The position numbers and the translations under genes were made by a program. This document shows, one piece after another, positions 19,088 through 46,083 of a DNA stretch of 64,000 nt; positions within the stretch are counted from its first letter, which is position 1, and each line of letters opens with the position of its first letter. The DNA is from Eledone cirrhosa (lineage: Eukaryota): NCBI GenBank assembly GCA_964016885.1, contig OZ024758.1:11408001-11472000 (forward strand), written 5' to 3'. The notes beneath the pieces were generated by a model. It had not been told where the DNA came from. It made no database searches and saw only the letters and a list, made by a program, of their open reading frames with translations.

Positions 19088-19398
19088 TAAGATCAAAAGA
19101 TGGTTAAAAGAGTTCCATGTATTTTATTATGCGCATTTCAAAAACAAATATCATCATGGGATGATATCTGCGTTCTCATCATATAAAATAGGGAGACATG
19201 ATATGAAGTTTAAAAAACACTTGCGAGCAGAGAAGTGTATGTAGATTTAAAACTTCACTGCTCGCAAGTGTTTTTTAAACTTCATATCATGTCTCCCTAT
19301 TTTATCTGATGAGAATGCAAGTATCATCCCATGATGATATTTGTTTTTGAAATGCGCATAATAAAATACATGGAACTCTTTTAACCATCTTTTGATCT

Positions 19399-38396: not shown

Positions 38397-38633
<237 letters not shown>

Positions 38634-39059: not shown

Positions 39060-39127
<68 letters not shown>

Positions 39128-39197
39128 GACGTAAAATAAGAAAATATTTTTTTATAAAAAAATTTTTAAAAAAAATTTTTTTCTTACTTAAATTTTC

Positions 39198-39279
39198 ACT
39201 CCAACTAATTAGTTTCTGCAATGGGATAAAGACAGTTATGTAATCCAACTGTCGAGAATTCATTGCGTCATCAGGAAGT
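39198..39279 (-). ncRNA. Type I hammerhead ribozyme, array copy 1
   Basis: Minus strand reads ACTTC-CTGATGA-c-GCAATG..GACAGT..ACTGTC..CATTGC-a-GAAA-CTAATTAG-TT-GGAGT. Stems I, II and III all pair, stem III is palindromic, and the site is GUU. Confidence 0.8.
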
Positions 39280-39759
39280 CTATTCTCAGTTAAGTCTCCA
39301 GGCAATGCGCGGACACTGGCGGCTCATATAAAAATAATAATAATTCGGTAGATCGAACAGCTTGCGAGGACTGGATTCTATGTACCGAAATTCTCACTGC
39401 TTCAAGTCAAATGGCCGATTCTAAAGAATCAATCACGTGACACAGAGGCTAGTTAGAAGGAATGGGATGGTAAGATGACTGACGCCTACTAACACCCCAA
39501 AAAAAATTTTTTTAGAAGTGGTTTTGACAAGTTTGCTCGACAAATCAGTGATTTGGAGATAAATATAGATAATTTAATATATCAACTAACATAAGCGCAC
39601 AGATGCACGCCCATGCCAGCAAATACACAGGTTATGTCATAGTACCTAGGTGGTTCAATGCAGGAGAATGCAGAACAATAATATAAAGGACGTAAAATAA
39701 GAAAATATTTTTTTTATAAAAAAATTTTTAAAAAAAATTTTTTTCTTACTTAAATTTTC

Positions 39760-39841
39760 ACTCCAACTAATTAGTTTCTGCAATGGGATAAAGACAGTTA
39801 TGTAATCCAACTGTCGAGAATTCATTGCGTCATCAGGAAGT
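39760..39841 (-). ncRNA. Type I hammerhead ribozyme, array copy 2
   Basis: Same sequence as copy 1, 562 bp away. Confidence 0.8.
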
Positions 39842-40320
39842 CTATTCTCAGTTAAGTCTCCAGGCAATGCGCGGACACTGGCGGCTCATATAAAAATAAT
39901 AATAATTCGGTAGATCGAACAGCTTGCGAGGACTGGATTCTATGTACCGAAATTCTCACTGCTTCAAGTCAAATGGCCGATTCTAAAGAATCAATCACGT
40001 GACACAGAGGCTAGTTAGAAGGAATGGGATGGTAAGATGACTGACGCCTACTAACACCCCAAAAAAAATTTTTTTAGAAGTGGTTTTGACAAGTTTGCTC
40101 GACAAATCAGTGATTTGGAGATAAATATAGATAATTTAATATATCAACTAACATAAGCGCACAGATGCACGCCCATGCCAGCAAATACACAGGTTATGTC
40201 ATAGTACCTAGGTGGTTCAATGCAGGAGAATGCAGAACAATAATATAAAGGACGTAAAATAAGAAAATATTTTTTTATAAAAAAATTTTTAAAAAAAATT
40301 TTTTTCTTACTTAAATTTTC

Positions 40321-40402
40321 ACTCCAACTAATTAGTTTCTGCAATGGGATAAAGACAGTTATGTAATCCAACTGTCGAGAATTCATTGCGTCATCAGGAA
40401 GT
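40321..40402 (-). ncRNA. Type I hammerhead ribozyme, array copy 3
   Basis: Same sequence as copies 1 and 2, 561 bp from copy 2. Confidence 0.8.
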
Positions 40403-40559
40403 CTATTCTCAGTTAAGTCTCCAGGCAATGCGCGGACACTGGCGGCTCATATAAAAATAATAATAATTCGGTAGATCGAACAGCTTGCGAGGACTGGATT
40501 CTATGTACCGAAAATATATATATATATAGAGAGAGAGATAGGTAGATAGATAGATAGAT

Positions 40560-45648: not shown

Positions 45649-45949
45649 ATGGAACGTATTGAAATGAACCATTTGAATATACCAAGCCCACATTCAGATG
45701 AGAATGGCGACGGAAATAGCAACACTTTGTATGGAAGTACAATGACTCTGGGTGCAAGTTCTCCCGGTGTTGGAGCATCCACAGCCAATTTACTGAAGAT
45801 TGATTTAGAGAAAAAAATCGATCGACATACGGGTGAAGAACGAGAAACCTGGGATAATCGTGTCCAATTCATTCTCTCGTTGGCTGGTTTTGCTGTAGGT
45901 CTTGGAAATGTTTGGCGTTTCCCATATCTGACACAGAAAAATGGAGGAG
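45649..45949 (+). CDS. SLC6 family sodium-dependent transporter (SLC6A15/SLC6A17-like), coding exon 1
   Basis: ATG at 45649. Encodes [37 protein letters not shown], the SNF/SLC6 TM1 signature. GTAAGT donor at 45950, phase 1. Confidence 0.95.
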
Positions 45950-46083
45950 GTAAGTTACAGCATTTTATTAGTATTGCAATGGACCAGTGGTTTAGCAGAA
46001 CTAGTAGAGCATCGCACAAAATGTTTGTGGAATGTCTGCCTATTCTGTAATCCTGTTTGGGTTACTTTTGCCTTCAAGGGTTC

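Follow-up and report, generated by a model that had tools for sequence, protein, structure and literature searches.

Two fixed 3' ends in tandem hammerhead arrays of the octopod Eledone cirrhosa: a possible record of rolling-circle, double target-primed reverse transcription

Introduction

How does a short sequence bearing a hammerhead motif come to stand in head-to-tail copies inside a (TA)n microsatellite? The question is raised by a locus in a 64,000-nucleotide stretch of the Eledone cirrhosa genome (contig OZ024758.1, positions 11,408,001 to 11,472,000 of the forward strand), which we refer to as the window. A preliminary description of this DNA proposed a retrozyme-like array whose minus-strand transcripts would self-cleave into monomers. 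It regarded the array as a permuted copy of a circular RNA, reverse transcribed by rolling into a (TA)n target.

Metazoan non-LTR retrozymes have been described as circular RNAs (PMC7229834) and as derivatives of Penelope-like elements (PLEs) (bioRxiv 10.64898/2026.07.22.740005). Retrozyme circles have been reported by northern blotting in coral, mussel and axolotl, and the step from circle to genome is put forward as a hypothesis in the accessible part of PMC7229834. Endonuclease-bearing PLEs are reported as partial tandems, with an inverted 5'-truncated copy and a one-sided tail of 30 to 40 bp (PMC8557442, PMC3846280). The origin of such tandem, inverted and tailed insertions has been called undefined (PMC8557442). 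For PAc, a Poseidon element, both DNA strands were reported to be extended in vitro, two internal start sites define the tail, and a dimer was predicted; insertion did not need hammerhead cleavage, and priming was not homology-based (PMC11167929).

Results

We initially delimited the array in the window (Table 1). Its three head-to-tail units begin at 39124, 39685 and 40247 and measure 561, 562 and at least 267 nt. A single T in a homopolymer is the only difference between units 1 and 2, and the partial unit 3 matches unit 1 exactly. The some 2.5 near-identical units of the preliminary description are thereby borne out, as are its (TA)n on both flanks and its minus-strand monomers of about 561 nt, since the predicted cuts would free monomers of 562 and 561 nt. 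The array is noncoding: the sole overlapping frame is a 100-aa stop-to-stop frame, and a tblastn comparison of the unit with eight PLE ORFs gave no match below E 0.28. The unit has a GC content of 35%, and its predicted fold is more stable than those of shuffled sequences (z -4.5 linear, z -3.7 as a circle). Further copies of the TATA-like element, a candidate promoter judging by its sequence, start at 39884 and 40445. About 5 kb to the right of the array lies the first coding exon of an SLC6 transporter (45652-45951, plus strand), 99% identical to an Argonauta hians protein.

Table 1. Coordinates of the array and its parts within the window (A and B, the two fixed 3' ends; cuts are predicted)
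Feature	Position	Strand	Remark
Single-armed retrozyme insertion, ~2.5 head-to-tail units	39124..40513	-	Minus strand = RNA sense
(TA)n target, element 3' end	39092..39124	.	ATATA microhomology with putative priming site A
Fixed 3' end A (monomer position 83), the end of the window insertion	39120..39136	-	
Type I hammerhead, copy 1	39198..39279	-	Predicted cut 39203/39202, after GUU
Type I hammerhead, copy 2	39760..39841	-	Predicted cut 39765/39764
Type I hammerhead, copy 3	40321..40402	-	Predicted cut 40326/40325
118-nt A-B tail, two conserved hairpins	39563..39680	-	
Second copy of the A-B tail	40125..40242	-	
TATA-like element, ~55 nt upstream of the hammerhead core	39322..39334	-	Assigned from sequence
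5' truncation point, variable in the family (here monomer position 374), abutting (AT)n	40505..40513	-	
(AT)n beyond the 5' end, second half of the microsatellite target	~40514-40528	.	

Each unit carries on its minus strand the same motif, ACUUC CUGAUGA [51 nt] GAAA CUAAUUAG UU GGAGU. It comprises stem I (ACUUC/GGAGU), the CUGAUGA core, a 51-nt stem II domain, GAAA, a palindromic stem III and a GUU site, which agrees with the earlier claim of one type I hammerhead per unit. A scan of the whole window for type I hammerheads, in which G-U pairs were admitted, returned nine motifs, compared to a mean of 0.03 (maximum 1) in 100 block shuffles. The six additional hammerhead-like motifs belong to unrelated repeats and lie at 19306(+), 26790(-), 31538(+), 32443(-), 37179(+) and 38799(+). 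Two of them sit in other tandem units, of ~483 and ~459 nt, seen at loci L099 and L090.

The two computational checks that the preliminary description had suggested for the motif gave less. An Rfam search found no match to a hammerhead in the array, neither at the gathering score nor at E<=10. Folding of the isolated motif yielded an active fold at -15.2 kcal/mol, but the minimum-free-energy structure was an alternative fold at -19.8 kcal/mol. The motif is non-canonical, with an unpaired C and an unpaired A beside stem II, a side hairpin on stem II, and GUU as its site. Its CUGANGA core, GAAA, NUH site (= GUU) and three stems are all present. The extra C follows the core in 336 of 337 copies, the extra A precedes GAAA in 337 of 337, and CUGAUGA is kept in 329 of the 337 copies read, overlapping loci being included in these counts. 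Across subfamilies that are ~68-95% alike, GAAAC...GUU is invariant. When 19 hammerhead variants are aligned, pairing holds in 97% of cells, and the G-C pair at the base of stem II, the candidate for G10.1-C11.1, is kept in 18 of 19. Two stem II pairs show two-sided changes in 18 cells; the sequences are related, and the shuffle control overstates this signal. Together, these patterns support a ribozyme under selection, in which stem II covaries across subfamilies and for which cleavage is predicted. An insertion at position 9/10.1 has been reported for PLE hammerheads (PMC4209133). In other hammerhead families (L092, L093, L097, L099, L100 and L101) a non-pairing U-U stands at the base of stem II, and judging by these sequences such mismatching may characterise the lineage as a whole. 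In one hammerhead family, situated next to PLE ORFs, the site is CUU.

A genome search with the unit returned 551 candidate places. The 40 that were scored hold 231 matches, on many contigs and with differing flanks, and identity is 94-100% among the 150 matches listed. A family-specific 26-mer occurs 1,608 times genome-wide; for a 20-mer that marks the wider lineage the count is at least 9,366 (control, 0). The search for other arrays proposed earlier thus uncovered dispersed relatives, and by these matches the array in the window belongs to a young family with hundreds of near-identical insertions. Near-identical units would also result from tandem duplication at the locus or from an error of assembly. 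Against such an origin stand the scattered matches with their differing flanks, the exact 26-mers, the fixed ends described below and relatives in the sequencing runs of other organisms, and we give it a negligible probability. For the family, the dispersed copies and fixed ends exclude the artefact or single-locus duplication that the preliminary description had kept in view. The family shows the traits of non-LTR retrozymes, namely two or more hammerhead-bearing tandem units that are noncoding and dispersed. It has an older sister family with a 526-nt unit, identical to the 561-nt unit in 390 of 576 columns. Relatives of the unit occur as contigs in three sequencing runs; in one of them, from another organism, they reach very high summed depth and come in many variants, which places the family beyond the Eledone genome. 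At L163-L166, L174, L232 and L236, arrays of different ages adjoin within one TA run, indicating that old insertion sites are reused.

We compared the ends of 76 young-family arrays: the window array, 38 from the listed best matches, and 37 in chromosome order, taken from the first 100 of the 1,608 26-mer matches minus loci already sampled. Dropped before counting were older matches in L049 and L065, separate older arrays in L213, L232 and L236, and one overlapping 76% match in L220; the right end of L068 was taken from a separate analysis of the ends. Monomer numbering starts at the predicted cut site. In 75 of the 76 arrays, the RNA-sense 3' ends lie at nt 83 (site A) or nt 201 (site B). These sites are 118 nt apart, and each ends in TATAT followed by (AT)n. 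Half of the arrays (38/76) are two-armed, with the arms head to head and their 3' ends outward, and in all 38 an A end is paired with a B end (P=4e-13 for independently drawn ends). The single-armed arrays (n=38) comprise 23 that end at A, 14 that end at B and 1 unresolved. Exact B/(TA)n junctions number 800 genome-wide and exact A/(TA)n junctions 298, the latter by a pattern that misses a common older allele. Along one chromosome stretch with 39 A and 100 B junctions, outward pairs were A/B in 25 cases, A/A in none and B/B in none.

The same arrangement was seen in older copies. The sister family has two homologous ends, 120 nt apart, and 11 of its 14 two-armed loci fit the A/B rule, as do 35 of 40 two-armed loci in a mixed, position-ordered older sample counted by eye. 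In the misfits among these older subfamilies (3/14 and 5/40), the second arm ends elsewhere, with no clean A/A or B/B pair. The 5' ends are variable, and the arms meet at microhomology of 1-6 nt in 26 of 38 inversion points; the remaining 12 have gaps, fillers or longer overlaps. Among 13 variants of the A-B tail, a short hairpin is invariant and a long hairpin is kept, with three pairs changed on both sides. From this conservation, the tail hairpins are a candidate protein-binding site.

Two traits of non-autonomous PLEs are thus found. The two-armed arrays (38/38) have the inverted, 5'-truncated arm and the one-sided tail, the window locus being single-armed, and an AT-rich or (TA)n target is present at the sampled 3' junctions. 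Any target-site duplication would merge with the TA repeats on the two flanks. The A/B pairing is the 'tail/inversion' signature of Penelope elements, and double-end priming on one RNA explains it best. That the family is a non-autonomous PLE-type element is very probable, and priming from both target ends is likely. Family search and junctions together bear out the preliminary view of a young, dispersed, hammerhead-bearing tandem retroposon in (TA)n, of the retrozyme/PLE kind. The permuted rolling-circle array fared less well: its (TA)n target stands, but its left end proved to be a fixed priming site shared by the whole family, and the main feature, the two-armed A/B insertions, is absent from that description. 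The array in the window is a lone A arm truncated at nt 374, so that the earlier 'permutation' amounts to a fixed 3' start and a variable 5' stop. Internal copies of site A lie at 39681 and 40243, and site B, at 39563, is not an end at this locus. At 38497-38632, a short insert between TA runs has two outward ends that both read ...TTCCT into (AT)n; it looks like another small two-armed insertion.

Marks carried by the arms bear on the template. SNPs fixed in one arm are shared by the opposite arm in 33 of 33 comparisons, several of them per array and not independent. Both arms of L064, and likewise of L217, share alleles absent from every other sampled array. In L044, each arm has a unit-specific mark three units from its end, and the two arms also keep the same register of unit marks in L035, L042 and L052; it follows that priming at A and at B often began in one and the same unit. 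The arms of L039, L061 and L065 are out of register or unlike in unit marks. Variants are array-wide in 88 cases, confined to a subset of units in 4 and to one unit in 47; eight array-wide SNPs are private, as judged within the family sample. Arms reach 11 units, unit junctions are exact in 279 of 281 cases, and none of the 114 arm 5' ends stops at the predicted cut site. From this absence of cut-site stops and from the array-wide private mutations, a circular template is favoured, the circle itself being predicted. Part of the preliminary proposal of a monomer circle has to be given up, because some templates appear multimeric: unit periods of 2 (L042 and part of L059), 4 (L061) and 5 (L065) point to multimers, which a slow ribozyme may have left uncut. 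A monomer ring does not explain the marks on adjacent units in L034, L039 and L056.

The 5' ends include one cluster, at monomer nt 480-491 (window ~39273-39284), on the 5' edge of the hammerhead. It holds 9 of the 114 ends (P=8e-4, uncorrected), and 6 of 114 are at nt 490-491; in older copies, 6 of 81 contexts also stop at nt 480-491. This cluster could be run-off at the transcription start of a linear RNA. An apparent pile-up just past the cut site was gone once the ends were mapped exactly (nt 1-20, 7/114 versus 4.1 expected, P=0.11), and an excess at nt 21-60 falls within homopolymers, which bias the mapping. Neither site A (5 stops versus 2.2, P=0.07) nor site B (3 versus 2.6) shows a significant excess, and such stops were therefore excluded from the evidence for a ring.

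We searched the genome for an autonomous partner. There are 10,597 candidates with reverse transcriptase (RT) and GIY-YIG domains, some with long open frames, such as L091:1775-5062 (1,096 aa), L089:4809-7622 (938 aa) and L090:2488-5019 (844 aa). Some carry a CxxxxCxxC motif before the nuclease, as described for the Neptune and Nematis clades (PMC8557442), and the elements inspected end in (AT)n. The best matches of the L091 protein are bivalve (residues 560-1096, identity up to 64%), a level high enough to raise the question of horizontal transfer. None of 40 GIY-YIG loci (of 150 scored among the 10,597 candidates) held an autonomous element with the ends of the unit; these loci contained unlinked older retrozyme copies only, and no sequence common to the unit and the pseudo-LTR of an autonomous PLE was seen in these 40. 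The 3' regions of ~8 of 17 listed PLEs had no ends in common with the unit. An RT+GIY-YIG ORF next to the unit, which the preliminary description had proposed to look for, was found neither within nor joined to any array examined. Unit matches of 75-79% in L086 and L096, considered as a link to a partner, turned out to be separate older retrozymes, divided by a TA run from the element that carries the ORF. At L169:1330-1450, a sister-family arm is fused to the 3' end of an L091-type PLE, in a chimeric or nested structure, and might hint at the driver. That this driver is a PLE, we infer.

Discussion

Our reading of these arrays is that a PLE-type RT-endonuclease cuts a TA repeat and uses both of the resulting DNA ends as primers on a single RNA, which is probably circular. 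We consider this explanation probable as a whole; for the template taken separately, a mainly circular form is somewhat favoured. The proposed cycle would begin with transcription of tandem arrays, for which the TATA-like element upstream of the hammerhead could act as promoter. A slow hammerhead, probably dimeric through its palindromic stem III, would free monomers and some multimers, which would circularise. Next, the hairpin pair of the A-B tail would be recognised by a PLE protein acting as a dimer, which would nick each strand of the (TA)n target. Either DNA end would anneal, through TATAT, to its own site, A or B. From there, each end would be extended round the RNA for 0.2-11 units with strand displacement, and the two cDNA ends would be joined by microhomology. 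Loss of one arm would give a single-armed array such as that in the window, which has the A end and is 5' truncated. In its full form, this reading takes the arrays as traces left in the genome by rolling-circle, double target-primed reverse transcription, in which a PLE dimer on the two-hairpin site of a ring of one to five monomers gives each DNA end one fixed start and both polymerases travel round the same ring. This version we hold tentatively, at close to an even chance.

The same double priming by a PLE could act on long, linear, uncleaved read-through transcripts, with array length set by duplication and homogenisation at the DNA level and circles as by-products. Templates were sometimes multimeric with distinguishable units, L034, L039 and L056 carry adjacent-unit marks, and the 5' ends clustered at nt 480-491 may mark a transcription start, all of which a linear template would accommodate. 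Unprocessed RNA was, in addition, the dominant substrate reported in vitro (PMC11167929), and an uncleaved transcript likewise predicts no run-off at the cut site. Copying with 5' truncation can only shorten an array, yet arms reach 11 units; array-wide SNPs outnumber subset SNPs by 88 to 4, private alleles run throughout both inverted arms, and unequal crossover is not readily able to homogenise both. We therefore regard a linear template as unlikely. More improbable still is an inverted arm made by fold-back self-priming, through a cDNA hairpin or an antisense template, after a single target-primed event. This model was put forward for rotifer Penelope elements (PMC3846280). It too predicts shared haplotypes, and 3 of 38 insertions (L068, L214 and L242) do start both arms at one base, one of them at a natural palindrome. 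In 33 of 38, however, the arm starts are more than 6 nt apart on the monomer; either arm may be the longer, by several units, and A and B each serve alone as precise 3' ends in 23 and 14 of the 38 single-armed arrays.

A further question is whether the hammerhead matters to the spread of the family at all. It could be vestigial or protein-dependent, the repeat spreading purely as a SINE-like element derived from a pseudo-LTR. The extra nucleotides on both sides of stem II, the GUU site, the short stem III and the lack of an Rfam match are in keeping with this, and PLE hammerheads have been reported to be weak (PMC4209133) or protein-assisted (PMC11167929). The retention of CUGAUGA in 329 of 337 copies, the invariant GAAAC...GUU and the compensatory stem II changes across subfamilies argue the other way and make this reading improbable.

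Like non-LTR retrozymes, the octopod family consists of noncoding tandem units of low GC with one type I hammerhead each, within the reported length range of 51-972 bp, and it co-occurs with PLEs, whose mobilisation of retrozymes has been proposed. Fixed priming sites, TA targets and inverted two-armed arrays are not described in the available text of PMC7229834 and the preprint; the word 'inverted' is absent from that of PMC7229834, and 'cephalopod' from that of both PMC7229834 and bioRxiv 10.64898/2026.07.22.740005. The octopod unit also differs in its 51-nt branched stem II, its extra C and A, and its GUU site. Circles have been shown for some non-LTR retrozymes; for the octopod family they are predicted from genomic sequence. 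Plant LTR retrozymes have type III hammerheads in LTRs, with a PBS and a PPT; the octopod arrays are of type I and head to tail. In contrast to an autonomous PLE, the arrays have an RT + GIY-YIG ORF neither within nor joined to them.

With endonuclease-bearing PLEs, as far as the accessible accounts go, the family shares inverted head-to-head arms, an extension at one end, (TA)n targets and a hammerhead in the repeated unit. It differs in having no ORF, a tail of 118-120 nt, arms that can both span many units, and a strict split between tailed and tailless arms (38/38). PAc likewise has two internal start sites whose spacing equals the tail, and the extension of both DNA strands and the dimer described for it are also proposed for the octopod family. 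PAc start sites are, in that account, non-homologous to the target and the same for both strands (PMC11167929), whereas each octopod site has a terminal TATAT that matches the target, and a different site serves each target end. The octopod arrays also invite comparison with LINE-1 in the orientation of their arms. Twin priming in LINE-1 likewise gives outward-facing 3' ends and microhomology at the inversion. Its second primer anneals at variable internal sites and its arms do not overlap, whereas the two octopod sites do not vary in position and the stretches copied into the arms overlap. We found no cephalopod retrozyme, double or twin priming in retrozymes, or strict A/B rule in the literature within reach, which left out most subscription papers. 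The family may already be listed in the supplements of PMC7229834 or PMC4209133, the preprint tables, Repbase or Dfam.

Since the kind of element is already known, the value of the family lies in mechanism and not in a new class. It offers hundreds of very young insertions with a near-exceptionless end rule and haplotype marks, together with a short RNA of known sequence, on which both start sites are mapped and the hairpins are candidates for protein binding. With these, the questions of PLE insertion and of the step from circle to genome become testable in the existing in vitro PLE system. The hammerhead variant, with extra nucleotides on both sides of stem II and a GUU site, exists in thousands of copies and is missed by Rfam. 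If rolling-circle double priming is true, it would account for the inverted repeats and the one-sided tail of all endonuclease-bearing Penelope elements, and animal circular ribozyme RNAs would be real templates of transposition.
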